A program made the translations under genes and the position numbers. Below the pieces are notes generated by a model. It was given only the letters and a program-made list of their open reading frames with translations. It did not search any database and was not told where the DNA came from. A stretch of DNA of 64,000 nt from the NCBI GenBank assembly GCA_964579675.1, contig CAZOIA010000004.1:3551-67550 (forward strand), written 5' to 3'. The DNA is from an uncultured Planctomycetales bacterium (lineage in GTDB: Bacteria; Planctomycetota; Phycisphaerae; UBA1845; PWPN01). Of this stretch, positions 1 through 19,634 are shown one piece after another (position 1 is the first letter of the stretch; each line of letters starts with the position of its first letter).

Positions 1-156
1 TCGGAGCTGGACGAGCTGCTCGAGACCGGCACGCGCTCGCCGGAGACCGACGGGTACTCGGAAAGCAGTACCGTCCCCGAGCCGCCGACGCTCTTCCTGC
101 TGGTCCTGGGCATGGCGGGGCTTCGACTATGTCGGCGCCTGCCGGCCGCCGCTTGA
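1..156 (+). CDS. 3' end of a PEP-CTERM sorting-domain protein (5' partial)
   Basis: Frame 1 reads ...SSTVPEPPTLFLLVLGMAGLRLCRRLPAAA*: VPEP motif, hydrophobic helix, basic tail; TGA at 154-156. Confidence 0.85.
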   Translation, partial: SELDELLETGTRSPETDGYSESSTVPEPPTLFLLVLGMAGLRLCRRLPAAA

Positions 157-243
157 CCGCCCGAGCGGGCCCCCTTCTGCCATCTCCCGAGAGTCCGTTG
201 CACGCCCGGCGCCGCCCGGCCAGAATGCTTGCCGGAGGATAGT

Positions 244-5033: not shown

Positions 5034-5495
5034 TTACCCCTGGACGCTCAGCGGTCCGTAAGTAACGTCTGCCGGCGCGCCGCCCTGCCATTCTCCCGAG
5101 GACGCGCCCTGGGTCGCTTGTTCCTCCCGGAGTTTATCGATCAGCATGACCCAGGTTTCCCGCTGGTACTCGAGTATCTCGAGCGCCTGGTTGGCAACGG
5201 CAACGTCGCGATTCGTGCTGGCCTCGACCAGTTTCCGGTAGATGAAGTTGTACAGTCCGGCCATCCGGGTGCACAGGTCCTTGTCGACCTCGTAGTTCAG
5301 GGAATTGAGCAGCTCGATGATGATCTTCTGGGCCCGGCTGAAACCGTTGAACGCCTCTTCCCAATTCCTGCTGTTGATGCCCTCCACGCCCCGGCGCGCG
5401 AACCGGATCGCGCCGTCGTAGAGCATCAGTTGCAACTGCTCCGGCGGTGCAGTCAGGATGGCGTTGCGAAGGTACTCGTCTGGCACTTGACCCAT
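5034..5495 (-). CDS. fliS: flagellin export chaperone FliS
   Basis: YLRNAILTAPPEQLQLMLYDGAIRF, RAQKIIIELLNSL, LYNFIYRKL, RETW; follows fliD. Confidence 0.93.
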   Translation of the reverse strand: MGQVPDEYLRNAILTAPPEQLQLMLYDGAIRFARRGVEGINSRNWEEAFNGFSRAQKIIIELLNSLNYEVDKDLCTRMAGLYNFIYRKLVEASTNRDVAVANQALEILEYQRETWVMLIDKLREEQATQGASSGEWQGGAPADVTYGPLSVQG

Positions 5496-5597: not shown

Positions 5598-8500
5598 TTA
5601 CGATCCTCCGCCGGCAAACGTCTCCACCAGGCTGGAGAGAGAAGACAAGGCCCCTTGCTGGGCCTGGAGGCTCGCCAGGGCCCGCTCCATGGCCTGGAAC
5701 TGGGCGTAAAGCCTCTGCTCCTTCAGGTCCAATAACTCCTGGATATCGGCCGCCCGATCATTGAACCGATCGACCCGTTCCTGGAGCATGTTGCCCTGCA
5801 GGGCGAAGGTGCCATACACGCTGTTGGTTATCCGGTCCAGTGTCTCGTCGAGACGGGCCGCCACACCTACCTTGCTCACGTTGCCGTCATCGTCCTCAAC
5901 GAGCAGTGTGAACAGGTCCTTGACCGCCTCCGGATCGGAGGTAAAGGTATCCCTGAACTTCTCTTCATCGAACTGGAGCCGGGCCCCCGATCCGAATGAC
6001 AGACCGACATCGTACGCGCTGGTGTACGTCAGATCGGGGGCGTTCACCCGAGCCGTCACCCCGGTGTAAAGCCGCTGCTGAACCCGCATTACAGTGCTGT
6101 CGCCGAGAAGCACGCCTCGCTCCTCAGTCTCCGGAATGTAACAGGTCAGCTCATCCATCCGGTCGAGGGTATCATTGTACGTGGTGACGAACGTTTTGAT
6201 GTCGGACACCACGCTTTCTATGTCACGGGACACGTTCACCTGAACCGGGTCATCGCTCGTCCCGACGAGATTGAGCGTCAATCCCTCCACCACGTCCGTC
6301 ACGGTGTTGCTGCTGGAAGTGACGACAATCGCGTTGGCGGAGTTGGGATCGCCGAGGACCAGCGTGGCATCGCTGGCCTCGGTGAGCGTGTTCAGCTTCA
6401 GCCCGGTTGACTGGGTGCTGAAGGCGATCGTACCGGCGACGCCGGTCGTAGCGGACGTGAGCACCAAGCGGTACGGGGCCAGAGCGGTGCCGTCGTTAAT
6501 CACCCCGGCCGTCACCCCGACGCCGGCAGAGTTGATCTTCTCGACTAAGTCGTCAAGGGTATCGTCGGCGTCGATGTCAACCGTCGTGGCGAAGCTCCCG
6601 TCTAGCACTGTACCCTCGGCGGTGCCGAGAATGCCCAGGTCCGCGGCCGCTGATCCGCTCCCTGCCTCGGCAACGGTCAACGTCCCGGTGCCCCCGGCGG
6701 TGTCCTCCAGCTTGATCCCGTCCCCGTCGTCATTGATGCTGGCGGTCACGCCGATGCTGAGATTGTTGATCGCGTCGATGACATCCCCAACGCTCTTGTG
6801 GAGTGTCTCGCGCAGCGTCAGAGTCGCCGACTGCCCCGCGCTGTCGGTAATGCGGATCTCCTCGAAATCAATCCCGCTGCCCTGGTTGAGATCAGCCAGG
6901 AGCGTGTTCTCGGAAATGCCCTGAAGCTGAAGATCGCTGCTGGCCAGTCGCCCGGGCGAGGCGGAGGTGAGATGAAGGTCAGCCGCCGTCGCGCCGCTCA
7001 CGTCGGTGACTGCCAACGTCCCGGTGCCTCCGGTGGTATCCATGATGACGATGCCGGTTCCGCCCGCGTCAATCTCGGCCGAGAGGTTGTCCTCCGCGCT
7101 GATGAGATCGATGACGTCCTGAAGGGTCTGAGCCCCGGAAAAGTCCAACTGAATCGTGCTGTTGTCGCAGCACGTGAATTCCACGGTTCCCGTGGCGACA
7201 CCACTGCCGCCGTTGAGCGAGGTCAGCAAGACGGTGTTCAATCCGGCAATCAGATCCCGTGATTCGAGCTGATCGCCCTGGAATCCGCCCAGCAGCCCGA
7301 GATCGCGGGCGGCCAGCGACTCGTTAAGAGCCTCCACCGTGCTCTGATTGCCCCCGCTGGTGGTGTCGGTCAGAACGATCCCCTTGCCGTCGGCGGAGAT
7401 CTCCGCGGTCAGGTAGCTCTCATTGCCGTCGGCATACTCGATGGCCCGCAGCACCGCCCCGATCGTGTCAACCCGGTAGATCTCGGTGCCCGTAATGGCG
7501 TCCTCCTCGGTATCGGCGACAATCCCGAGATCCGCGGCGGCATACCCCGCGATGTCTTCAATCTTGAGATTCGACGCAGTTCCCCCGGACGTGTCGGTCA
7601 CGATAACCTTTCCCCCCGCCAGCGCGACCGCCACCGACAGGGACTTCGCGGCGATGGCGTCAACGACGTCCTGCATCGTTTCCGCACCGGTCAAGACGAT
7701 CTCCTCTGAATCGCCGTTACGATTGGTGATGCGGATTCTGCGTTCACCGTTGCCGTCGCCACGGACACCGCGTCCTTCGTTCAGTTCCGCCAGCTTCGTA
7801 GAGAACTGGAGATTGCCCGACAGACTGACGTCGAAGCTATCGCCGCTCTTCAGGCCGAACCGCAGATCCGCGGCCAAGCCGTCCACCCGCACGCCAGTCC
7901 CGTCGTTCAGCCTGGACAGCCCCGTGGTCTCGGTGAGGTACATGAGCTGATGCCCGGTGACCTCGCCGGCGGCATGAATGCCGGCAATACCGAGATCCTG
8001 AGCCGCCAAGCCATTTCCAACGTCACTGATGACCAGGTTCCCCGTCGTCTGGCCGGTGTTATCGGTGATCACGATCCGGTCGCCCTGCACCCGGGCTCGC
8101 ACATTGATTCCGGCTTGGGCGTTGATGGCGTCGAGCACGCCGGCTACGTCGGTGGCCGCCCGCAGGTCCACGTTCGCCGAGGCCCCGCTGCGGTCCGTGA
8201 TGCGAATGATCCCGCGCCGCAACCCCGCTCCGCCGTTCAGCGCCGCCAGCTCGGTGGCGCGGTTGACGCGACCCTGGCCGATCTCGAACGTCAGCGTGCC
8301 GGCGCCGATCCGAGTCGAATCGCGATCCGCCAAACCCGCAGACACGAGTTGGTGCGTGGTCGCGAGGGATTTGACAACGAAGGAGTAGTTGTTGATCGAC
8401 GCGTTGGAGGCCGCCGTGGCCGACAGGACTTGCTCATTCGAACTGACGGCAGTCCTGCTCCTGAACGCCGACGATTGGGAAAGCCGCTGGATGGCCGACT

Positions 8501-8675
8501 TGGCGCCGAGAAGGCGCGCGTTCAATTCCAGGTACGCGGTTCGCTGCGTTTGCGCGTCGGCAACCCGCTGTTCAAGCTGCCGAAGTGGACGCGCCTCGAT
8601 CTCAATCAACTGGCTGACCAGGTCCTGGATATTGAGTCCAGAGATCAGGCCCACCCCCGAGGAAATCGTTCCCAT
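5598..8675 (-). CDS. fliD: flagellar filament cap protein FliD, greatly extended (1025 aa)
   Basis: N-terminal GTISSGVGLISGLNIQDLVSQLIEIEARP; C-terminal FVTTYN...GVLLGDS...LYAQFQAMERALASLQAQ; central repeats; SD GAGAGGAG before ATG 8675. Confidence 0.92.
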   Translation of the reverse strand: MGTISSGVGLISGLNIQDLVSQLIEIEARPLRQLEQRVADAQTQRTAYLELNARLLGAKSAIQRLSQSSAFRSRTAVSSNEQVLSATAASNASINNYSFVVKSLATTHQLVSAGLADRDSTRIGAGTLTFEIGQGRVNRATELAALNGGAGLRRGIIRITDRSGASANVDLRAATDVAGVLDAINAQAGINVRARVQGDRIVITDNTGQTTGNLVISDVGNGLAAQDLGIAGIHAAGEVTGHQLMYLTETTGLSRLNDGTGVRVDGLAADLRFGLKSGDSFDVSLSGNLQFSTKLAELNEGRGVRGDGNGERRIRITNRNGDSEEIVLTGAETMQDVVDAIAAKSLSVAVALAGGKVIVTDTSGGTASNLKIEDIAGYAAADLGIVADTEEDAITGTEIYRVDTIGAVLRAIEYADGNESYLTAEISADGKGIVLTDTTSGGNQSTVEALNESLAARDLGLLGGFQGDQLESRDLIAGLNTVLLTSLNGGSGVATGTVEFTCCDNSTIQLDFSGAQTLQDVIDLISAEDNLSAEIDAGGTGIVIMDTTGGTGTLAVTDVSGATAADLHLTSASPGRLASSDLQLQGISENTLLADLNQGSGIDFEEIRITDSAGQSATLTLRETLHKSVGDVIDAINNLSIGVTASINDDGDGIKLEDTAGGTGTLTVAEAGSGSAAADLGILGTAEGTVLDGSFATTVDIDADDTLDDLVEKINSAGVGVTAGVINDGTALAPYRLVLTSATTGVAGTIAFSTQSTGLKLNTLTEASDATLVLGDPNSANAIVVTSSSNTVTDVVEGLTLNLVGTSDDPVQVNVSRDIESVVSDIKTFVTTYNDTLDRMDELTCYIPETEERGVLLGDSTVMRVQQRLYTGVTARVNAPDLTYTSAYDVGLSFGSGARLQFDEEKFRDTFTSDPEAVKDLFTLLVEDDDGNVSKVGVAARLDETLDRITNSVYGTFALQGNMLQERVDRFNDRAADIQELLDLKEQRLYAQFQAMERALASLQAQQGALSSLSSLVETFAGGGS

Positions 8676-8721
8676 TGTTGCTCCTCTCTCGCAGGCGCGC
8701 AGATACACCTTTCTCCATAGA

Positions 8722-8914: not shown

Positions 8915-10336
8915 TTATCCAAGAAGGGCCAACGCGTTTTGGGGCAACTGGTTGGCCAAACCCAGAATCGAGGTCGTGCTCTGCACGAGGATCTGGGCCC
9001 GCGTGAGGGCCGCCACCTCCACCGCAATGTCGGCGTCGCGGATGGCGGATTCGGCAGCCATCACGTTTTCCAGTGCAACCCGCTGACTGTTGATGTTGGT
9101 TTCGATCTGGTTCCGCTGCAACCCGCCCAGCCGGCCCCGGACGATTGCCACCTGGCTGATGGCCTTGACGACGATCTGCTCGGCGGCCTGGTAGTTCTCA
9201 CCGACGACGGAGTTGCTGCCGGCCCCGTTGATCGTGTTGAGGAATCCGAGCGTCGCATTGCCCAGATTGCTTGTGCCCACCGATGGTATGCCGATCGCGA
9301 CTTGCCCATTGGTGTTCACCTCCGGTCCGATCTGGAACGTTGCGCCGCCGCCGGTAATGTAGAAGCTCGTCGTGCCGAGGCGCGTGCCGCGGTCGGCCGT
9401 GAGATCCAGCTCCAGGTCGAGGCCGTTGGCGCGAAGCGACGCGGTAACCCCGTTCACCGAAGCGGCCTGGCCGTTGATCAGAACCCCCGCATCCTGCCCG
9501 GTATCGCGGGTGGTCGAGCCGGTCGCCACGATAAACGTGCCGTCGATCGGCTTAACCGCCACGAAGGCGTCGGAGCCGTACGTCTGGCTGTTCAGGAGGA
9601 TTCTCGTGCTGGCCCCGGTGCCACTGACAGACGCCGACACGCCGGTGGTTTGCGCGTTGGCGTTGATGGCGGCAGCAATGGTGGCGGCACCCGATCCACT
9701 CGTGATGGCGATGATTTCGGCGCCGTCGTTGCCTTTGACTTCTATGGTGATGTTTTCCGACACACTGCTTCCTGCAAAGGCGACCTGGGCCGTCTGGGCG
9801 CTAGTGGTGACCTGGACCGTCACATTCGTCTGGCCACCGTCAGGCACGCGTGCCCCGAATATGGTCGCAGTGGCGATGGAGGACGCGGCAAGCCCGGAAA
9901 CGGTGTACTCGAAGTTCCCGTTGACCAGTTTTTCTCCGCCGAACTGTGTCGTATTGGCGATGCGGTCGATGGCTTCGAGAAGAGAATCAATCTGGAGCTG
10001 GTCGGCCTGGAGCTCCTCGCTGCTGTTCGCCCCTTCGTTGGCGGCGTGGGTGATGAGGGCGCGCATGTCGAGCAACAGAGCCGAGATCTCATTGAGGGCC
10101 CCTTCGGCGGTCGTGATGACGTTGACCGCCCGCTGCGAGTTCTCAACCGCCTGGCTGATGCCGCGGATCTCGCTGCGCAAGGTCTCGGATGCGATCAGGC
10201 CGGCCGGATCGTCCCGACCCCGGTTGATTCTCAGCCCGGTGCTCAAACGCTCCAGCCGAATCGCCAGATCGAATTGGTTGGCCGCCAACCGGTGGGTGGC
10301 CTGAATCGAGGGAATGTTGGTGTTGATGCGAGTCAT
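8915..10336 (-). CDS. fliC: flagellin 1 (473 aa)
   Basis: MTRINTNIPSIQA...LSTGLRINRGRDDPAGLIASE; C-terminal ESAIRDADIAVEVAALTRAQILVQSTTSILGLANQLPQNALALLG; SD AGGGAGG. Confidence 0.95.
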   Translation of the reverse strand: MTRINTNIPSIQATHRLAANQFDLAIRLERLSTGLRINRGRDDPAGLIASETLRSEIRGISQAVENSQRAVNVITTAEGALNEISALLLDMRALITHAANEGANSSEELQADQLQIDSLLEAIDRIANTTQFGGEKLVNGNFEYTVSGLAASSIATATIFGARVPDGGQTNVTVQVTTSAQTAQVAFAGSSVSENITIEVKGNDGAEIIAITSGSGAATIAAAINANAQTTGVSASVSGTGASTRILLNSQTYGSDAFVAVKPIDGTFIVATGSTTRDTGQDAGVLINGQAASVNGVTASLRANGLDLELDLTADRGTRLGTTSFYITGGGATFQIGPEVNTNGQVAIGIPSVGTSNLGNATLGFLNTINGAGSNSVVGENYQAAEQIVVKAISQVAIVRGRLGGLQRNQIETNINSQRVALENVMAAESAIRDADIAVEVAALTRAQILVQSTTSILGLANQLPQNALALLG

Positions 10337-10340
10337 GGCA

Positions 10341-10545
10341 TCCTCCCTGACTGTCGGGGCAAGAATCCGTGCTTGCACCGTCCGGAACACGGCCTTGTGT
10401 TCCGGGGCTAGGCTTCGGCAAGCCCAGCATCGACCCGACCCGCCAGCGGCGGATTCCACCGCCCCTCTTGCGGGCTCGCCCTGCTTTCCTGACTGGCAAA
10501 CCCTGCAGGCAAGGCGAACTCGTCCAGTTGATCCTCCCGATCAAC
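10341..10545 (-). promoter_or_regulatory. structured flagellin-1 leader with GGA-loop hairpins (CsrA-type sites)
   Basis: Hairpins 10527-10545 (loop GGGAG), 10448-10463 (loop UGGAAU) and 10360-10375 (loop CACGGAUU), plus the AGGGAGGA SD. Confidence 0.55.
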
Positions 10546-10663
10546 CCCCACCTTCCCTGGTGAGTTGTCGCCGGTGGCCCCTGTGGTCACTGGCGACTGA
10601 CGATTCCTGGTTCTCCCCCTCGGGCAGAGCCCCCCTAAACATCATCTGCGAGAACCATTCGGG

Positions 10664-10829: not shown

Positions 10830-12272
10830 CTATCCGATCAAGGCCAGGACGTTCTGCGGAGCGGCGTTGGCCAACTGAAGCGCCATCGTGGACGAATTCA
10901 CGAGGATCTGGGCCCGGGTCAGGTTACTGGTCTCGACCGCGAAGTCCGCGTCGCGGATGGCGGACTCAGCGGCGGTGGTGTTCTCGAACGCGATCTGAAG
11001 GGAATTGATCGTTGAAGCAAGGGTGTTCTTCTGGAAAGCCCCGAGCCGGCCTCGGAGGCTGGATACCTGTTTGCCGGCCTCACGAATGATCCGCTGGGAA
11101 GTCTCGAAGTTACCCGAGGTTAGCTGATTCGTCTGGCCGCTGCCCATAGACGACAGGTATCCGATGCTGCCCTTGCCCAGGCTGCCGGTGGCGACATTCG
11201 CTATGCCGAGACTCGCCATGGAGTTGATCCCCACCGTGGGGGCGATGCTGAAGTCGGCACCGCCGCCGGTCACATAGAACGTCTTGGTGCTACTCGTACT
11301 GGTGGCGAATGTGCTGGCGAGCGTCAGATCCAGGCCGAGGGCGGTGGTTCGCAACGAGGCGTCAAGACCGTCAGTAATCGCATCAATGCCGCTGATCCGC
11401 AACCCGACATCGACCCCGTGATCCCCGGTCGAACTGTCACCACCAGAGACGGTGAACGTGCCCTGAATGGCCTCAACGGTCACGAACGCATCCGATCCGT
11501 AGTCAGTGCTGTCGAACAGGATCCGCGTGCTGGCTCCGGTCCCGCTCACGGAGGCGGAAATACCGGTGAGAGTCTTGGACTGATTGACGGCAGTGGCGAC
11601 GTCGGCCGCGGACGTGCCCGATGCGAAGCTCAGTTGTTCGGTGCCGTAGTTCCCCGTAATCTGCAGCGTCGCGCCGCCGGTACCGACTGAGGATCCGGCG
11701 TAATTGACCTGGGCCGTCTGGGCCGATGTCGTCACCGCCACCGTAACGGTCCGGTATCCGCCGGTGGGGATTCGGGCCCCCGTAATCTTCAGATGCGAGA
11801 TACTCGACGCTCCGGTCCCGGTCGTGACGCCCGATGTGGTGTAATCCAGGGTCCCATTGAGCAGCTTCTTGCCCTGAAACTCGCTGGAGGTCGAGATCCG
11901 GTTGATCGTGTCGAGAATGGAGTCGATCTGAAGCTGGTTGGCCGATACCTCTTCCTTGCTCAGGGCCGCCTCGTTGGCCGTGTGGTCCACCAGGCTTTCC
12001 AACTCGATCAGCAGGGCACTGATCTCCTGTAGGGCTCCCTCGGCAACGGAGACCATGTTATCGGCCCGCCGGGCGTTGTCGATGGCGGCCCCGATGGCGG
12101 TAATCTCCGAGCGCAGCGTCTCCGAGGCGATCAGACCGGCCGGATCGTCCTTGCCCTTGTTGATGCGCAGGCCTGTGCTGAGGCGCTCCAGCGCGGTATT
12201 CAACGACCCGTTGTTTCGTGTCAGAATACGTGCGGCTACCAGCGAAGGTACATTAGTGTTGATTCGGCTCAT
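10830..12272 (-). CDS. fliC: flagellin 2 (480 aa)
   Basis: MSRINTNVPSLVAARIL...LSTGLRINKGKDDPAGLIASE; C-terminal ESAIRDADFAVETSNLTRAQILVNSSTMALQLANAAPQNVLALIG. Confidence 0.95.
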   Translation of the reverse strand: MSRINTNVPSLVAARILTRNNGSLNTALERLSTGLRINKGKDDPAGLIASETLRSEITAIGAAIDNARRADNMVSVAEGALQEISALLIELESLVDHTANEAALSKEEVSANQLQIDSILDTINRISTSSEFQGKKLLNGTLDYTTSGVTTGTGASSISHLKITGARIPTGGYRTVTVAVTTSAQTAQVNYAGSSVGTGGATLQITGNYGTEQLSFASGTSAADVATAVNQSKTLTGISASVSGTGASTRILFDSTDYGSDAFVTVEAIQGTFTVSGGDSSTGDHGVDVGLRISGIDAITDGLDASLRTTALGLDLTLASTFATSTSSTKTFYVTGGGADFSIAPTVGINSMASLGIANVATGSLGKGSIGYLSSMGSGQTNQLTSGNFETSQRIIREAGKQVSSLRGRLGAFQKNTLASTINSLQIAFENTTAAESAIRDADFAVETSNLTRAQILVNSSTMALQLANAAPQNVLALIG

Positions 12273-12568
12273 GTCTTGCGTGCCTCCAAACTGCCGCGAT
12301 CAGCTTGCCCGTTCCACCTGTCGAGTTCAGCCTGATCGTCGGAGCGCGGTTTAGCTGGTCACGATCCAGCCTGCCCGCGGGCTCGTCTTTACCCTGCCCG
12401 TCTGCCGTGTTTCCCCCAAACAGGTTCTTCACATCATGCCGACCCGTACCGGCACTCGACCCTCGGTCTCCACTTCATCCCCTGTCCCGGAAAACCCTCG
12501 CTCCATCGTGGCAAGGAAGCCGCAGAACAGGCTTCGCCACGTCCGCCGATCCTTCGGCGGTGTTCGTC

Positions 12569-12596
12569 GGATCGTCATCACGCTATGGGCGCTTTA
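12569..12596 (-). promoter_or_regulatory. sigma28-type promoter of flagellin 2
   Basis: Minus strand TAAA-N16-GACGATCC; just downstream is a hairpin CCGCCGA-AGGA-TCGGCGG (12543-12560). Confidence 0.5.
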
Positions 12597-13099
12597 GGTT
12601 TCTTCAGACGGTCCGAAAGTACGTGGTGACAAGGGCGAGGATGTTTCCGGACATGGGCCTGCCTGATAGGTCGAAAGGCGTGCCTTGGCACCGCGCGTCT
12701 CGGCCTTTTACCGGACAGCGGCCCCAAAGCCCGATCATCCTTGAGGTGAAAAAAAAAGTCGATCCGAAAAGGAATTCCTGTTCCGAACGGTGGTGCCGAT
12801 TCAGCCCGCAGGAATCGATTGTGACGATGATGCCCGATCGAGGAGCAGTTGCGCGCCAATCGGACCTCGCCCTCGCCCGCCGTGTTGCGGGAACCTACGG
12901 CCCTGTCGCGGTCCCGTCCGGGAGGACATTCCCGGCGGCCGGTGCCTACGGTAGCGGTGCAATGCACAGCTTCCCCGTGTCGGCCGGGTCCCCGGTTGGA
13001 CCATGCGGTCCCAACCTTCACCGGTCTGTTCTCACCACCCGTCCGGGCTCTGCACCCGATCCGATAACCTCAACGCGTTTTCGCTGCCGCCGCGCCCCA

Positions 13100-14551
13100 T
13101 CAGCCGAGCAGGGCCAGCACGCTCTGGGCAGAAGTATTGGCCAACGCCAGCACACTGGTTCCCGCATTGACGAGAATCTGGCTGCGCGTCAACCGGGATG
13201 TCTCAACCGCGAAGTCGGTGTCTCGAATCGCCGACTCGCTGGCGGTGAGGTTTTCCATCGTGATCGACAGCGAAGTTATGTTCGTCTGGAGCGTGTTCCG
13301 CTCAAACGCGCCCAAGCGCCCGCGTAGCACCGCGACCTGGCGAATCGCCTCGTTGATGATCTTGGACGCCTGGTTGGAAGCCGTCACGTCCCGAGTGGAG
13401 TCGTAGGTGCCGCCTTCCATAACCTGGCTCAGGAACCCGATCTGGTCATTGCCCAAGCGCGAGGCGGCCACAGACTGTACAGCAATGTTGACCTGCTGAT
13501 TGGGAGTGACGTCCGGCCCAAGCTGGAAAAGGGCTCCGCCGCCCGTGACGGCAAAACTCGTGGACCCGATGCCGAAGTTCTCATTCAGCGTCAGGGACAG
13601 ATCAAGCGTCTTCGTGTTGAGGACCAGTTCGAGCCCGCGGCCGATACTCTGGGCGCCGTTGATCATGGCCACCGCGTCGCGGCCTTCGTCTCGCTTGAAG
13701 TTATCGGAGTAAAGCGTTCCCGACGCATCGTGAAGATCGAACGAACCGCTGCCGGGCAAGAGGTTGACCTCCACGAACTCGGCGGTACCGTACCCGACGC
13801 TACGGAACGCCACGCCGCTGTTGGGGTTGCTGGCGTTCAGGAGCGCCACCTCGATACCACTGGCCTGGGTCTCCCGATTGACCGCGGCCATGAGGTCCGA
13901 AGTGGTCGTTCCCGAGGCAAACGCGATCACCGTTGTACCTTCGGTGCCGCGGAACTCGACCGAGATACTGTTGGTCAGTTGGCTGGTCCGGAACTGCAGC
14001 TCCCCCTGCTGGGCGGACGTGGTCACCGCCATGTCAACCGGGATGTAGCTTGCGGTCCCGAACTGGGCTGCATGCACCGCCAGCGTGGCGATAGCAGAAG
14101 ATTTCACCCCGCTCGTGATGTAGTCGAGCTCTCCGTTGAGCAGCTTGCGTCCCGCGAACGTGGCTGTGTTGGCGATCCGCGTGATGGACTCGATGGCCGA
14201 GTCAACCTGCAGCTGGTTGGCCCGCTTCTCGTCGCCCGACATGCCTGCATCGTTAGCGATTTCAACGATGAGGCCCTGAACGTCGATCAACAGCGAGGCG
14301 ACCTCGTTCAGCGCCCCTTCGGTGGTGGCGATGATACTGACCGCCCGCTCTGAATTGCCGATGGCCCTTTCGACCCCGGCGATCTCCGCCCGGAGGTTCT
14401 CTGAGTTGATCAGACCCGCCGGGTCATCCGCCCCACGGTTGATTCTCAACCCGCTTGAGAGTCGTTCCAGTGAAACCTGGAGGTCGCGATGGGTTTGGCG
14501 GAGGGTTCGCTGGGCGACGAGGGCCGGTACATTTGTGTTGATCCTAGCCAT
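13100..14551 (-). CDS. fliC: flagellin 3 (483 aa)
   Basis: MARINTNVPALVAQRTL...LSSGLRINRGADDPAGLINSE; C-terminal ESAIRDTDFAVETSRLTRSQILVNAGTSVLALANTSAQSVLALLG; SD AAGGAGG. Confidence 0.95.
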   Translation of the reverse strand: MARINTNVPALVAQRTLRQTHRDLQVSLERLSSGLRINRGADDPAGLINSENLRAEIAGVERAIGNSERAVSIIATTEGALNEVASLLIDVQGLIVEIANDAGMSGDEKRANQLQVDSAIESITRIANTATFAGRKLLNGELDYITSGVKSSAIATLAVHAAQFGTASYIPVDMAVTTSAQQGELQFRTSQLTNSISVEFRGTEGTTVIAFASGTTTSDLMAAVNRETQASGIEVALLNASNPNSGVAFRSVGYGTAEFVEVNLLPGSGSFDLHDASGTLYSDNFKRDEGRDAVAMINGAQSIGRGLELVLNTKTLDLSLTLNENFGIGSTSFAVTGGGALFQLGPDVTPNQQVNIAVQSVAASRLGNDQIGFLSQVMEGGTYDSTRDVTASNQASKIINEAIRQVAVLRGRLGAFERNTLQTNITSLSITMENLTASESAIRDTDFAVETSRLTRSQILVNAGTSVLALANTSAQSVLALLG

Positions 14552-14554
14552 TTG

Positions 14555-14620
14555 CAATCCTCCTTGATTGATTCTTGGCTACGAATCCGTCATCGTGACG
14601 GATGGGCCCGCGGTCCGCGG
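14555..14620 (-). promoter_or_regulatory. CsrA-type binding sites in the flagellin-3 leader
   Basis: SD hairpin CAATC-AAGGAG-GATTG (14555-14570); CCGC-GGACC-GCGG (14608-14620); 8-bp stem at 14585-14603. Confidence 0.6.
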
Positions 14621-14654
14621 TGCCGACCGGCCCCAGACCGCGGGGGTGGTGCCC

Positions 14655-14906
14655 CTACGTTTTCTTGCTCGGTTTTGCATGGTCCGCGGGGGCGCCGGCC
14701 ACATTAGCAATGTCTTCCGGCTTTACGTTGGCCGCCGCGCGATTCTCTCGCTTGATGGCCTCATACACTTCTTTTCGATGAACGGGGATCTCCTGGGGGG
14801 CGTTGATCCCCAGTCGTACCTTATCCCCGCGAATGTCGACAACCGTGATCTCGATGTCGTCCCCAATCATGATTGTCTGGTCGCGCTGTCTGGATAGCAC
14901 CAACAT
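14655..14906 (-). CDS. csrA: carbon storage regulator CsrA
   Basis: MLVLSRQRDQTIMIGDDIEITVVDIRGDKVRLGINAPQEIPVHRKEVY. Confidence 0.97.
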   Translation of the reverse strand: MLVLSRQRDQTIMIGDDIEITVVDIRGDKVRLGINAPQEIPVHRKEVYEAIKRENRAAANVKPEDIANVAGAPADHAKPSKKT

Positions 14907-15136
14907 CCTCGGCTCCTTCCTTGGCCATGCCGATGCTTCACGAATACCCTGCTTGACTTGTCATCGAGGTGTCGTTGAATCGGCAACCAACGCGTGGGGC
15001 GCCCGGCGGGCCAACCACCACGGACCTCGATGGCCAAGCAGCCGATAGCAACGCATTCGGTCTGGCCGGAGAACCTATCATACCATCTGGGAATCAGGCG
15101 GAACAGATGGGCAGCTTTCCGGCCCGGCCGGTGCGT

Positions 15137-15589
15137 CTAAGCTGTTTTGCTGACGACCTCCTGCTTCTCGCTCAGGTTCATCAGCGGGTGGCGGGTCGAA
15201 TACCGACGATCCGACAACACCAGTTGTCTGCCCTCGCGGGTATCCACATTGACCACGAGGGGGCCCTGCAGGTTCCCCGTCAGCATGTTGTCCACCTTGT
15301 TCACAATCGTGAACACCTGGGCTGACGAGGGGTCAGACAGGCCGATCTGCGAAAGATCCTCCAGCTTCACCGGCACCACATAATCTGAAACAAACAAACG
15401 CGGATCACACACCACAAATGCCAGATCCGCCCTGTGGACCGCCTGAAGCCAGTAGAACCCACTGTCCTCTGCGGTCTGAATCAGGGCATACTCCTGCTCA
15501 TCCGGAAACCCCAGAATACCCTTCGGGAATCGGAGCAACCGTTGCTCATCCACCTCCAATGGTCCAAACCGCGACGTATCTACGATCAT
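15137..15589 (-). CDS. fliW: flagellar assembly factor / CsrA antagonist FliW
   Basis: TSRFGPLEV...FPKGILGF...FYWLQAV...LAFVVCDP...NLQGPLVVN; SD GAGGAG before ATG 15589. Confidence 0.93.
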   Translation of the reverse strand: MIVDTSRFGPLEVDEQRLLRFPKGILGFPDEQEYALIQTAEDSGFYWLQAVHRADLAFVVCDPRLFVSDYVVPVKLEDLSQIGLSDPSSAQVFTIVNKVDNMLTGNLQGPLVVNVDTREGRQLVLSDRRYSTRHPLMNLSEKQEVVSKTA

Positions 15590-15888
15590 CGCGACTCTCC
15601 TCGTATTGACCCATCCAGAGTCGATTGGCCCTTCTCGTGCCCGCCCGGTCCGCCGGCCGGCGTCATCCTTAACGTCCGTACCACCGGTTTGACCGGCCAC
15701 ATCCATCCGCGCGAGAACAACCTGCGTCATCCTGATCGCAACCCGGCTTGTCTTTGCCGGGCAATCATTCCACCGCGCGCTTGCTGGGTCACATAAAGCC
15801 GCACGGTGCGTCCCGCGCCCCTCCTGCTTCCGTCCCGCCCCTTGCCGGACCTCCCCCTCCCCTGCCGCAACCAGCAGGCCAAGACCTG
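15590..15888 (-). ncRNA. candidate CsrB/RsmZ-like multi-GGA RNA (fliW leader or processed intergenic RNA)
   Basis: 15 GGA trinucleotides on the sense strand in 15598-15860, at least four in hairpin loops; repeated AGGAUGACG. Confidence 0.4.
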
Positions 15889-17844
15889 CTAGAGGAAATC
15901 CAACAACGATAACTGAAGCAGTTGCGAGCCCGTCATCAGGTTCGCCTGCAACGTCATTTGTGCCTGCTGAAACCGGGTAACCGCCTCCGTGTAATCCAGA
16001 TCCCTCACCTCACTCAACAGCGTGCTGCTGGCAAGGACGGCATCCTCGGTCAACTGAAGCCTGGTGTGCATCGCCCGCGATCGCGCGCCGACAACACCCT
16101 GCGTTCGGCTTGCGTGATCGATGAAATAGTTGATCCGCTCCGCTGCCAGCGTGATATTCTGTTCAACCTGACCCCCGCCGGTCACGAGAGCCTCGTGCAG
16201 GTCCAACAGGGCGGTGAAGATGCTGTCCGGCTTGATGCCGTTGGTGTCGTCGCCGACGAGTTCGTTGCCGCTCACCACCTTCTCGAGGCCTAGACCATCA
16301 ATCGCCGGCGAAGCACCCGCGCGGTCGACGCGGAGATCCCCGCTCCCGCCGGTACCATCTACAATGCGAATTCCGTTACCCGTCGTCGCCAGCGAAGCGG
16401 TCAGCGCAACGCCCGCCGCCGCCGCCGCGGCGTTGATCTTGTCGATCACGTCCTGAATCGTGGTCGAACCATCGAGACGGACGTTGAAGCTCGAGCCGTC
16501 CCTGGCCGTGACGGCGAGGTCGTCGAACCCCTCTCGGATGTCAACGCCCCGGCCGTTGTTCAACTCGCTGAGTTGGGTCTGCCCGTGCAGCGATCGGATG
16601 CCGAGAAGCTCGGCCGTGTTGCCCCCCTCCTCGCCGATCCGCATCTCAAGCCCGGACATCAGGTTGATCACATCGATCCCCGTCCCGGCTTCGTTGATCT
16701 CCGCGCGGGCCTCGACCTCAGCGGCGTTGATCCGGTTGAGCACGTCCTGGACCGTGGTGAGCCCGCTCAGATCAATGGTCTCCGCCAGCGACCCGTTCTC
16801 GATGCGAATCGACCCCAGGACCGCCCCCGCCCCGCCGAACAGCGACGCGAGGGTCGTCATCGACGTCACCTGCGGATCGAGATCATTGCCGGCGATCACA
16901 CCGGTCCCGGTGCCGCGGATCCCGAGGTCCCGGGCGGTAACGCCCCCGCCCAGATCCTCAACTGTCACATTCCCGCCGCTGACCGTAATCTCCAGCCCGT
17001 TGGCTCCCGCGTTGATTGCGGCGTTGAACTGACTGCCCGCACCCACGGTGAGGCCCGCTCCCTCGGCCGCCGCGTTGATCATATCAATGACGTCGCCCGC
17101 GGTGTCCGCCAGGCTCAGATCGACGACAAAGGTCGTCGCCGGCGTGTCCAGGGAAAGCCGGATGAGCCCTTGCGCGATGCCGTTGCCGGCGGCCCCGTTC
17201 ATGTCTGCCAGTCGCGTGTCACCGGTGAGGGCGGGATCGAGATCGACGCACCCGCTCACCTGGCCGGTCATGGCCCCGAACAGATCATCGCCGGTCAGGT
17301 TGATCTGGGCGTCCTGGAACAGATCCACGTGCGTGGTCAGCGCCAGCCGGTCGCCGCGGTATTCGACCCCGCCGTGGGTCTGCGTAAAGGGGGTAGTGGT
17401 GGTCTGATGCCCGCCGAAGAGGTACACCCCCTGGTACGTCCGGTTGCCCACCGTGACGAGCTGGTTGATCATGCCGAGCACCAGTTCCGCCATGGAATCC
17501 CGTTGGGCCTGATTGGCGGTGCTGTTCACCATTTCCGACGCAATCGAGTGCGCCTCGATCAGCAGGTCATTGATCTCGCCAATGCTGCTGTCGGTGGCGG
17601 CGAGGAAGCTGTCGGCGTGCCGGATGTTCGCCAGGATCTGCTCCTGACGTTCGAGGGTTTCGGTGAGCTGCGTGGCCCGGGCCGCCAGCACCGGGTCCTC
17701 GCTGGGAGCGTTCAGCCGATAGCCCGTCCCGAGACGGTTCTGCTCCAGGAATAGCGCCATGGTGTTCTGACGCAGCGAGTCCAACAGCGAAATCGTTCGC
17801 AGGTTGAAACTCGTTCGCGAGATGTTGATCGGGGTTATGGCCAT
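15889..17844 (-). CDS. flgL: hook-associated protein 3 FlgL, extended (651 aa)
   Basis: LGTGYRLNAPSEDPVLAA, YLFGG, C-terminal LSEVRDLDYTEAVTRFQQAQMTLQANL; follows flgK. Confidence 0.92.
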   Translation of the reverse strand: MAITPINISRTSFNLRTISLLDSLRQNTMALFLEQNRLGTGYRLNAPSEDPVLAARATQLTETLERQEQILANIRHADSFLAATDSSIGEINDLLIEAHSIASEMVNSTANQAQRDSMAELVLGMINQLVTVGNRTYQGVYLFGGHQTTTTPFTQTHGGVEYRGDRLALTTHVDLFQDAQINLTGDDLFGAMTGQVSGCVDLDPALTGDTRLADMNGAAGNGIAQGLIRLSLDTPATTFVVDLSLADTAGDVIDMINAAAEGAGLTVGAGSQFNAAINAGANGLEITVSGGNVTVEDLGGGVTARDLGIRGTGTGVIAGNDLDPQVTSMTTLASLFGGAGAVLGSIRIENGSLAETIDLSGLTTVQDVLNRINAAEVEARAEINEAGTGIDVINLMSGLEMRIGEEGGNTAELLGIRSLHGQTQLSELNNGRGVDIREGFDDLAVTARDGSSFNVRLDGSTTIQDVIDKINAAAAAAGVALTASLATTGNGIRIVDGTGGSGDLRVDRAGASPAIDGLGLEKVVSGNELVGDDTNGIKPDSIFTALLDLHEALVTGGGQVEQNITLAAERINYFIDHASRTQGVVGARSRAMHTRLQLTEDAVLASSTLLSEVRDLDYTEAVTRFQQAQMTLQANLMTGSQLLQLSLLDFL

Positions 17845-17924: not shown

Positions 17925-19634
17925 TCAGCGGACCAGCATGAGCATCTCCTCAAGCAACTGATCCACGATCGAGGCATAGCGGGCTGCACCTTGAAACGCC
18001 CGTTCGAAGCGGAGCAGCGAAATCGTTTCCTCATCCAGGCTCACCCCACTGATGGATTCGCGCTGGGCGGTCAGCGACAGGGTGATGGCATCAGCGGCCT
18101 CGACGCCCGCCACTGCCGCCTGGCTCGTCACCGCGAGGTTGGCGGCGATCGCGTTGTAGAAATCGGTGAGGCTTTGCCCATTCAGGCCGGTCAGGGAATC
18201 GGTCCCCAGGGCGGCGATCCGGGCCGCGTTCGAACCGTCGCCGGTCGTGCCTACCATCGCGGCGGCCAGCAGGTTCACGTTGCCGGTGAGCGTCGTGTTG
18301 ACCGCGATGTCCTGGGCATCTCGCCCGGTGAAGAAGGTGTTGATCCCCAGTGCCGCCAGCACGTGAGAACTGTCCTCGGAGAACGTCATCTCGAACCCGG
18401 TGGCCGCGGTGAGCTGGAGCCGGTTGTCCACCGTCACTGCCGCCGTCACATTGGCCACGTTGGCGTTGATCTGGGCCACCAGCGAATCCAGCGAGTCGTC
18501 GGTGCCGACCCCGTCCAGATCAACGGTGATAGTGGTCGTGGTCGGGGTGCCGGAACTCTGATCCGTGACCGTGATGAGGAACGAGCCGTTCCGCGGCGTC
18601 AAATCCAGCCCGGCGCCGGTGCTGTTCAACACCGCCGCGGAATCGAGTACGTCGTAGGTGCCAACCACATTTATGATGCCCTCAAGCCCTTGGCCCTCGG
18701 CATGAACCTTGTTGACTTCCTGGATGAGGGCCTTGGCGAGACTGTTGAGCTGGGCCACGTATCCGAGGCTATGGGAATCTCGTGCCTCCACAAACCCGGC
18801 CAGTTCTCCGTTATCCAGGGCGATCGGGCCGTTGTTGTCGGCGAATCGGACAACGACCGTCGGCTCCCCGTTGACCGTCTCAAACGTACTCGTGATGCCG
18901 CGATTCAGGCCGCTCTGAATAAGCAGTTCGTTGCCGGCGTAAACATTGATACCGCCGTCGGGCTGTTCACGGATCTGGATTTCCAGGAGTTCAGCCAACT
19001 CCCGCAGCAGTTGATCCCGCTGGTCGCGGAGGGCGTTGGCGCCGCCCCCCTGCGAACTCTCAAGAGCGGTGATCTGGACGTTCAACGCGGCGATGTCCTG
19101 CGTCAGCTCCCCTGCGTGCTGGGCTGCATCTTCCAGGTCGTGATTCAGTTCATCACGTATCACCAGCACATCGGACCGTTGCCGCTGGATCTCACGGATC
19201 AGCGAATCGGCCGCCGTCAGCACCATGCCTCGAGCGGCCAGATCGTGCGGCTGATTCTGCAGCGAGCTGCAGGAGTTGAAGAACTCCTGCAGTAGCGTGG
19301 ACAGGTCGGTGTCGGTCAGTTCGTGAAGTACGCCTTCGAGCTGTCCCAGAACCTGCTGCTCAACCACCGACCCTGACTGCTGCCCGATGGCCGCCCGGAG
19401 CCGGTTCTCCAGCGAGTGGTCCACATTCCGCCGCAGCGCCTCCAGCGCCACCCCGCCCCCCGGAGTAAAGCCTTCCGGCAGCAGTACACCCGTTGATGGC
19501 GTCATGACCGGCGTCTGCCGGGTGTAGCCGGGGCTGCCGGCGTTCGAGATGTTGTTGCCCACCACCTGCAGCGCGCTCTGGTACGCCAGCAGAGCACTCC
19601 GGCCGATCTGTAATGCTCCCGTAAGCAGACCCAT
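17925..19634 (-). CDS. flgK: hook-associated protein 1 FlgK
   Basis: LQIGRSALLAYQSALQVVGNNISNAGSPGYTRQ, NALRDQRDQLL, RESISGVSLDEETISLLRFERAFQGAAR. Confidence 0.95.
   Translation of the reverse strand: MGLLTGALQIGRSALLAYQSALQVVGNNISNAGSPGYTRQTPVMTPSTGVLLPEGFTPGGGVALEALRRNVDHSLENRLRAAIGQQSGSVVEQQVLGQLEGVLHELTDTDLSTLLQEFFNSCSSLQNQPHDLAARGMVLTAADSLIREIQRQRSDVLVIRDELNHDLEDAAQHAGELTQDIAALNVQITALESSQGGGANALRDQRDQLLRELAELLEIQIREQPDGGINVYAGNELLIQSGLNRGITSTFETVNGEPTVVVRFADNNGPIALDNGELAGFVEARDSHSLGYVAQLNSLAKALIQEVNKVHAEGQGLEGIINVVGTYDVLDSAAVLNSTGAGLDLTPRNGSFLITVTDQSSGTPTTTTITVDLDGVGTDDSLDSLVAQINANVANVTAAVTVDNRLQLTAATGFEMTFSEDSSHVLAALGINTFFTGRDAQDIAVNTTLTGNVNLLAAAMVGTTGDGSNAARIAALGTDSLTGLNGQSLTDFYNAIAANLAVTSQAAVAGVEAADAITLSLTAQRESISGVSLDEETISLLRFERAFQGAARYASIVDQLLEEMLMLVR

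Follow-up and report, generated by a model that had tools for sequence, protein, structure and literature searches.

A conserved structured leader of fliW mRNA in Phycisphaerae with candidate CsrA-binding sites

The window analysed here, a stretch of 64,000 nucleotides (nt) from an uncultured Planctomycetales bacterium, has a 299-nt spacer between flgL and fliW (15590-15888), and this spacer holds a conserved RNA of about 230 nt (15584-15812, minus strand). That we are dealing with a conserved, structured leader of fliW is almost certain, and its covariation, pseudoknot and pairing with the coding region make it a well-supported structured RNA family, outside Rfam, whatever its function. Regarding function, the arrangement of its GGA motifs suggests a cis-acting fliW leader responsive to CsrA rather than a sponge RNA of the CsrB/RsmZ type; we give this reading a probability of about 0.6. 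Since the leader displays loop motifs of the CsrA-binding type, CsrA probably sets the amount of its own inhibitor, FliW. A preliminary description had placed an array of GGA hairpins at 15590-15790, as a sponge or autoregulatory leader. The GGAs do lie at the positions it gave, but the feature is larger and spans 15569-15890.

Relatives were collected by scanning species-representative genomes with a FliW profile, which yielded 80 loci; all counts of conservation and statistics below pool related species, with kinship ignored. Nearly all 80 loci share one arrangement: flgL, a spacer, fliW, a second spacer (about 230 nt), csrA, a third spacer (about 95 nt) and fliC. In the 20 or so closest species, the flgL-fliW spacer measures 206-349 nt, with the single exception of L001 (592 nt), and contains 33-47% G and 8-16 GGAs. 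The flgL-proximal third of the spacer is unalignable; the fliW-proximal 230 nt are strongly conserved, with invariant blocks lying between segments that change in a paired manner. A covariance model, R1, has one strong match in the window (15584-15812, 205 bits); at E<1e-5 it recognises 38 of the 80 species, with a single match in each locus whose end is invariably at the fliW AUG. The model also finds sequences outside its training set, in L021 (120 bits, 46% GC) and L019. In the latter, a partial inverted copy of the element (positions 1-163, minus strand, 56 bits) overlaps the forward copy at the contig end and is probably an assembly artefact.

The element goes with fliW and not with its upstream neighbour. 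Metagenome contigs scanned for a DNA pattern, irrespective of the genes present, gave 11 loci, one of them the window's own sequence, and the downstream gene is fliW in all nine that reach it. In L021, a complete genome, the element stands before fliW although the upstream gene is murD-like and not flgL; the element therefore belongs to fliW. Its hosts are uncultured Phycisphaerae of a single clade, from sediments, sludge and groundwater. No open reading frame is conserved across the element in relatives, as in-frame stop codons fall within it in many species. Rfam 15 at gathering thresholds has no match in the window, and at E<=10 over 14500-15950 only chance matches to microRNAs and AS1726 appear. 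More distant Phycisphaerae (L030-L059, L071, L073, L078) present a simpler design, a short fliW leader of 57-150 nt (fliW at ~4001). In these short leaders, AUGGAU comes directly after the flgL stop codon and a final hairpin, GGUCGC-loop-GCGACC, abuts a GGGAG Shine-Dalgarno sequence; about 40% of the species have a GGA in that loop.

RNAalifold applied to a MAFFT alignment gave 39 pairs, 20 of them with compensatory double changes, including the long-range pairing of GACCC with GGGUC. The full model that we scored comprises P1, the pseudoknot, P2, P3, the long-range P4, P5, P6 and the apical P7. Its helices, apart from those that carry GGA sites, and the tentative helix P0 are as follows.

15771-15808, minus strand: P1 hairpin, with a stem of 10-13 base pairs (bp) that differs in all 21 species and a loop containing the conserved GACCC
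15786-15790, minus strand: 5' strand of the pseudoknot, GACCC, pairing with 15608-15612 (RNAalifold)
15608-15612, minus strand: 3' strand of the pseudoknot, GGGUC, partner of GACCC
15763-15766, minus strand: 5' strand of P0 (tentative), GAUU, with partner AAUC at 15623-15626
15623-15626, minus strand: 3' strand of P0 (tentative), AAUC, within the conserved GCCAAUC
15741-15762, minus strand: P2 hairpin, GCCCGGC-loop-GCCGGGU, 97-100% paired
15709-15722, minus strand: 5' strand of the long-range helix P4, pairing with 15627-15640
15627-15640, minus strand: 3' strand of P4, pairing with 15709-15722

In a structure-blind MAFFT alignment of 21 species (A4), 92.7% of the cells are paired, against 81% in column shuffles, and both partners change in 25 of the 46 model pairs. 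Covariation scores 0.41, compared with 0.19 in shuffled alignments (none of 500 shuffles reaches the observed value) and with 0.07-0.15 when partners are slid by 1-3 columns. Aligning 29 sequences to the covariance model gives 92% paired cells, 34 of 48 pairs changing on both sides and a score of 0.49 versus 0.19; because a model-fitted alignment leans toward the structure, the pair count was repeated on the MAFFT alignment. Individual helices behave likewise. All nine counted pairs of P1 vary, eight of them with double changes, and the MAFFT alignment agrees; P4 shows both-sided changes in 11 of 12 pairs; the P2 pair 76:90 is GC in 19 sequences, CG in 6, AU in 2 and UA in 1. The window's leader has a minimum free energy of -95.5 kcal/mol (z=-2.1). 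A terminator-like match at 15801-15818 corresponds to the 5' arm of P1, and relatives show no conserved terminator there.

As GACCC lies in the P1 hairpin loop in single-sequence folds of 21 species, its pairing with GGGUC constitutes a pseudoknot. It is paired in 99% of the cells, with compensatory changes in separate lineages: GAUCC/GGAUC in L026 and L029, GGUCU/GGGCC in L021, and a further change in L022. P0 is paired in 96% of the cells and would, tentatively, close a four-way junction around P2, P3 and P4; we keep it as tentative because only one lineage is compensatory (U-A to C-G, three sequences). The comparison of hairpins and covariation across Phycisphaerae flgL-fliW spacers that the preliminary description had called for turned up a conserved covarying fold.

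Five GGAs in this fold are both conserved and predicted to be unpaired.

15724-15739, minus strand: P3 hairpin, GCG[AUCAGGAUGA]CGC, with an invariant AGGA-N-G in the loop and its GGA at 15730-15732
15698-15708, minus strand: internal loop J4/5, GGAUGGAUGUG here and AAUGGAGGUG in most species, with a near-invariant GGA at 15702-15704
15659-15676, minus strand: P7 apical hairpin, with hexaloop AAGGAU at 15665-15670 (consensus A-N-GGA-Y)
15613-15617, minus strand: single-stranded UGGAU immediately 5' of the pseudoknot strand GGGUC, with its GGA at 15614-15616
15597-15602, minus strand: fliW Shine-Dalgarno sequence GAGGAG, with its GGA at 15598-15600, conserved as (A/G)GGAG 6-7 nt before the AUG

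Of the 22 unpaired positions that are at least 95% conserved, start-codon block excluded, 13 belong to GGA motifs. Partition-function folding in 22 species leaves the P3, J4/5 and P7 sites unpaired with a probability of about 0.9-1.0 in most species, whereas the leader as a whole averages 0.33. The flanks of the P3 loop vary (CAGGAAG, UAGGAG, CGGGAUG, GAGGAUG) and its GGA stays in the loop even in the distant members L064, L069, L037 and L072; the window's version, CAGGAUG, corresponds to the CsrB-type repeat. In P7, a U.G or C-G pair closes the loop, in which the GGA never varies and neither does the A two positions upstream of it, while all four bases occur in between; the stem pair 290:406, next to the closing pair, is CG in 12 sequences and UA in 12. 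The GGA of UGGAU lies 16 nt upstream of that of the Shine-Dalgarno sequence, has its G and A at least 95% conserved and is missing only in L017. In most species J4/5 reads AUGGAGGUGG, with a near-perfect Shine-Dalgarno-like GGAGGUG deep in the leader; besides being a GGA site, it might act on ribosomes as a decoy or standby site.

Published consensuses for CsrA/RsmE binding are RUACARGGAUGU, (A/U)CANGGANG(U/A) and AnGGA within a hairpin (PMC6692469). The pattern seen here fits them in sequence and predicted fold: a GGA that never changes, an A at -2, free flanks and display in a hairpin loop. Also as in a CsrA-controlled leader, one GGA lies over the Shine-Dalgarno sequence, further A(N)GGA sites lie upstream within bridging distance, and a recognisable cognate csrA is nearby. 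All four hairpins of the preliminary description can be read at exactly the positions it gave, but only those at 15724-15739 (P3) and 15661-15674 (within P7) are kept in relatives, the latter with stem pairs that covary (UA 10 / CG 10); in both, the GGA is invariant. The hairpin at 15645-15656 loses its GGA there, its CCGG strands being part of other helices; in the one at 15608-15622, GACUC is variable and GGGUC pairs instead with GACCC at 15786-15790. As for the repeat AGGAUGACGC, the window contains exactly two copies, both of them within the element.

Counts of GGA, the starting point of the preliminary description, are less telling. Nine GGAs do lie on the sense strand of 15598-15771, and none on the opposite strand. 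The claimed threefold excess holds approximately against the window mean (about 2.8 times, at 3.1-3.3 per 175 nt) but shrinks to 1.5 times the mononucleotide expectation of the stretch itself (5.9), which is 39% G and 22% A. The whole flgL-fliW spacer has 15 GGAs, against 11.2 expected from shuffles (p=0.07). At 5.0 per 100 nt, its density is the highest among the window's spacers of at least 150 nt, although several short spacers equal it. Taken alone, the GGA count of a single sequence is evidence of nothing. A scan of the window for hairpins with an ANGGAN hexaloop found 14 against 8.6 expected, with no overall enrichment; five of the 14 lie in sense-strand leaders of fliW, fliC1, fliC2 and fliC3.

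Two further features occupy the flgL-proximal side of the element.

15813-15872, minus strand: variable purine-rich, GGA-rich linker between the flgL hairpin and P1
15873-15890, minus strand: flgL-stop hairpin AGCAGG-UCUUGG-CCUGCU, overlapping the flgL stop codon, with no U tract after it

The linker is about 70% purine and contains 3-9 GGAs in every species, and its sequence is unconserved. Pooled over 21 species, it has 93 GGAs versus 63 expected (z=5.3, a value that overstates independence because the species are related), with GAG and AGG at expectation. The GGA excess is absent from two controls, the csrA spacer (IGR2) and the 3' end of flgL. Relatives also have a hairpin at the flgL stop, of different sequence; it may be a weak terminator or a 3' stabiliser.

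At its other end, the leader extends into the fliW coding sequence.

15570-15593, minus strand: start-codon hairpin, in which CGCGA (15589-15593, including the A of AUG) pairs with UCGCG (15570-15574) in fliW codons 6-7

Relative to the start, the two strands occupy -4 to +1 and +16 to +20. In species with GCGAUG, codons 5-7 read ACG UCG CGN in 50 out of 50 cases, although UCG accounts for only 35% of the Ser codons elsewhere in fliW; species lacking GCGAUG use other Ser or Arg codons in 14 of 31 (Fisher p=1.5e-7). This association, a constraint on synonymous sites, indicates a start-codon hairpin reaching into the coding sequence. By partition-function folding, the fliW AUG has a mean unpaired probability of only 0.16. 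The octamer GUCGCGAU occurs twice on the minus strand, at the P2/P3 junction (15735-15742; GUUGCGAU in the window) and before and into the AUG (15587-15594). As its core UCGCGA is palindromic, the junction copy could compete for the same partner, codons 6-7, in a mutually exclusive pairing. Alternative pairings of the two GUCGCGAU copies, and of AAUCG with CGAUG, are ideas suggested by the sequence that covariation cannot probe, these sequences being invariant.

Motifs of the same type recur at the ribosome-binding sites (RBSs) of the two genes that follow.

14904-14938, minus strand: csrA RBS block AAGCAUCGGCAUGGCCAAGGAAGGAGCCGAGGAUG, 35 nt ending with the start codon, identical in 25 of 25 species
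14555-14570, minus strand: fliC1 RBS hairpin CAAUC-AAGGAG-GAUUG, with an ANGGAN hexaloop closed by C-G, invariant in 22 species

The csrA block contains CAAGGAAG, an exact match to CANGGANG, and in the predicted csrA hairpin AAGGAAG is in the loop and the AUG is paired. Because a conserved -10-like element (TAtnAT, 15077-15082) and a covarying long-range helix (15032-15041 with 14949-14957) are found in the fliW-csrA spacer (14907-15136, minus strand), csrA seems to be equipped with a promoter and a structured leader of its own; in L021, the promoter-like sequence is TTCCCA-16-TATGAT with an upstream TG. In the csrA-fliC1 spacer, a conserved hairpin AUCCGUC...GACGGAU (14585-14603), with a GGA in its stem, precedes the fliC1 RBS hairpin. 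A GCCAA pentamer lies upstream of the RBSs of fliW, csrA and fliC1 alike. Inspection by eye led us to reject sigma-54 (GG-N10-GC) and sigma-28 (GCCGATAA-like GCCAA) promoters: in csrA and fliC1 they would lie too close to the RBS, and what would be the -35 region is a strand of a covarying helix. The wording 'autoregulatory leader' in the preliminary description is supported by the fit of the conserved unpaired GGAs to CsrA consensuses and by the CANGGANG hairpins at the csrA and fliC1 RBSs.

A salt-marsh metatranscriptome provided only three short contigs over fliC and csrA, and none over the leader. Twelve sludge runs labelled 'METAGENOMIC RNA-Seq' (X12-X23, on L015) were discarded as expression evidence: their depth is flat over all genes and their contigs reach 234 kb, so that we take them to be DNA.

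We can now outline how the element may work. The fliW mRNA would begin with the GGA-rich linker (15813-15872), followed by a highly structured 5' leader (15569-15812) whose five GGA motifs would bind the dimer of CsrA, the product of the gene 230 nt downstream. Free CsrA would first occupy the high-affinity P3 and P7 loops and then the pair formed by UGGAU and the Shine-Dalgarno sequence, 16 nt apart, thereby setting the rate of FliW translation. Repression would be the likeliest outcome, through occlusion of the RBS and a favoured start-codon hairpin; CsrA sites that cover a Shine-Dalgarno sequence repress by default (PMC7652899). Activation might instead provide homeostatic feedback on the antagonist FliW, much as CsrA in E. 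coli affects the synthesis of CsrB/C positively. With CANGGANG hairpins at the csrA and fliC1 RBSs as well, flagellin, FliW and CsrA would all read free CsrA, and this common response of three leaders could stand in for the fliW-csrA coupling of B. subtilis. A bound leader would also hold some CsrA, as a side effect rather than as its main role.

More speculatively, the leader may be a true CsrA-sensing switch, in which binding at P3 and P7 re-partitions the pseudoknot, the start-codon hairpin and the upstream GUCGCGAU, such that FliW tracks free CsrA. We regard this model as possible but doubtful. Were it true, csrA synthesis would track free CsrA in parallel through its own CANGGANG leader, and this would be a FliW lineage where RNA-layer feedback from CsrA onto its protein antagonist replaces translational coupling.

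Several observations weigh against a CsrA-responsive leader. The nine GGAs of 15598-15771 are not significantly more than in dinucleotide-preserving shuffles (mean 7.3, p=0.25, window sequence alone), although the comparison with relatives changed the picture left by this count. Kinship among the species means that the conservation counts and the codon association are not independent events. The conserved unpaired segments GAUU, GCCAAUC and GACCC are not GGA motifs. We know of no CsrA-bound leader nearly as elaborate as a four-way junction with a pseudoknot, an architecture that, as modelled, looks like a ligand-sensing aptamer. A sigma-70 scan found no promoter-like site in the flgL-fliW spacer, and the direction of regulation is a guess.

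A riboswitch-like leader is the first alternative to consider. Here the signal that gates fliW translation, through the pseudoknot and the start-codon hairpin, would be temperature, an ion, a small molecule or some protein besides CsrA, the GGAs being structural or incidental. A conserved, covarying structured domain in a 5' leader is what a metabolite riboswitch presents, and here the domain is a complex multi-helix junction whose pseudoknot connects a hairpin loop with bases shortly before the Shine-Dalgarno sequence. The start-codon hairpin deduced from synonymous-site constraint resembles an expression platform, and conserved non-GGA segments are present. We nevertheless consider this explanation unlikely: no riboswitch or other Rfam family matches, even at E up to 10, and the sole associated gene, fliW, points to no metabolite. 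Moreover, over half of the strongly conserved unpaired bases fall in four separate GGA motifs, with flanks that vary as the CsrA consensus allows, and the same GGA motif lies over the csrA and fliC1 RBSs.

Still less probable is a passive structural leader, which would stabilise or process the flgKL-fliW transcript, or fix a translation rate, without a trans-acting sensor. The hairpin after the flgL stop and the very stable domain that follows would suit such a role, but stability leaves unexplained the invariant loops with free flanks, the pseudoknot and the GGA enrichment of the linker.

The preliminary description favoured an independent, CsrB/RsmZ-like sponge: a discrete small RNA of 200-300 nt that titrates CsrA. 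The spacer has 15 GGAs here and 10-16 in close relatives, its linker is GGA-enriched, and the C. jejuni work shows that an mRNA leader can titrate CsrA (PMC4894983). By analogy with flaA of that species, some CsrA titration by the bound leader is plausible. As an account of the element itself, though, the sponge is quite improbable. No Csr/Rsm covariance model of Rfam matches, whether at gathering thresholds or at E<=10. Instead of repeated units, we see a single complex fold with two GGA hairpin loops and three single-stranded sites, present once per locus before fliW; no terminator separates it from fliW, to whose ribosome-binding region and coding sequence it is paired; and the sigma-70 scan gives it no promoter of its own. 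Across bacteria, small RNA antagonists and fliW are anti-correlated (PMC4682653).

Finally, the idea that GGAs are abundant by chance in a G/A-rich spacer, or that FliW has an N-terminal extension missed by annotation, has a negligible probability: the single-sequence shuffle test is not significant and an open reading frame of the window does extend fliW upstream to 15730, but conservation and covariation in at least 29 species, in-frame stops in relatives and more than 100 homologues of about 150 amino acids (aa) refute both.

The flagellar genes around the element, identified with Pfam, all lie on the minus strand, and flgN was identified among them.

17925-19634, minus strand: flgK
15889-17844, minus strand: flgL
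15137-15589, minus strand: fliW, 150 aa (Pfam FliW, E=2.9e-35), the regulated gene in our proposal
14655-14906, minus strand: csrA, 83 aa (Pfam CsrA, E=5.7e-26), the proposed trans-acting partner
13100-14557, minus strand: fliC1, first of three tandem flagellins
10830-12272, minus strand: fliC2, second flagellin
8915-10459, minus strand: fliC3, third flagellin
5598-8708, minus strand: fliD
5034-5495, minus strand: fliS

FliW has about 2,600 homologues; the closest come from metagenome-assembled genomes of Phycisphaerae and Planctomycetota, and the window sequence was found again in salt-marsh metagenomes. The best solved relative of CsrA is the FliW-bound Geobacillus CsrA (5DMB), which aligns along the length of CsrA. 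The gap between fliW and csrA is 230 nt here, without overlap, and about 215-250 nt in close relatives. Farther downstream, the 827-nt fliC1-fliC2 spacer (12273-13099) contains a T9 run as well as a hairpin of 6 bp (12543-12560) whose loop is AAGGAU, and a similar hairpin with AGGGAA lies upstream of fliC3 (10547-10564).

How does the fliW leader compare with known systems? Two models dominate the control of CsrA: RNA sponges in Gammaproteobacteria and the protein FliW elsewhere. The survey in which sponges and FliW are anti-correlated across genomes lists Planctomycetes only as presumed FliW users (PMC4682653). CsrA is common in this phylum, and our literature search returned no study of it there. 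Nor did the search bring up any description of a fliW leader with CsrA sites, or of an RNA motif that precedes this gene.

The closest parallels are the CsrA-repressed flagellin leaders of B. subtilis hag and C. jejuni flaA, where one GGA lies in a hairpin loop and another in the Shine-Dalgarno sequence (PMC13443453, PMC4894983). The flaA leader is both repressed by CsrA and able to titrate it (PMC4894983), so that an RNA working alongside FliW would not be unprecedented. These leaders belong to the same flagellin-FliW-CsrA module, and the window's fliC1 leader is of the hag/flaA type; however, the target of the element described here would be the antagonist gene fliW and not flagellin, and two simple stem-loops give way to some 230 nt with five predicted sites, at least seven helices and a pseudoknot.

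The E. coli csrA leader, through which CsrA represses its own synthesis at four sites, one of them over the Shine-Dalgarno sequence (PMC7652899), likewise combines several sites in the leader of a Csr-system gene with feedback. The gene, the phylum and the fold are different, the sites of the fliW leader are predicted, and csrA has here a separate leader with an invariant CANGGANG RBS. With CsrB, RsmZ and RsmY, the element shares several GGAs shown in loops and a CAGGAUG resembling the CsrB repeat, and it would hold CsrA if bound. Unlike them, it is neither an independent gene nor a repeat array, has no Rfam match and is coupled to the fliW RBS. Translational riboswitches resemble the element in three ways: a covarying aptamer-like domain, a pseudoknot with one strand 5-9 nt before the Shine-Dalgarno sequence, and sequestration of the start codon. 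The fliW leader, however, matches no known class, its gene gives no clue to a ligand and its conserved loops repeat a protein-binding motif.

The gene neighbourhood of B. subtilis, flgK-flgL-fliW-csrA-flagellin, is the same as that of the window. In that species, the overlapping and translationally coupled fliW and csrA fix the FliW:CsrA ratio, and further controls of abundance, as yet unknown, have been predicted (PMC6529632). The task of keeping FliW and CsrA in step would be the same in both bacteria, but here 230 nt separate the two genes, and a structured leader precedes each of them. A GGA leader of the CsrA type is thus already known as a kind; what is new is the antagonist mRNA as its target, the size and complexity of the fold and the arrangement of three leaders. 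With its large conserved RNA and the companion csrA and fliC1 leaders, this locus is a concrete candidate for the predicted extra control of FliW and CsrA abundance.

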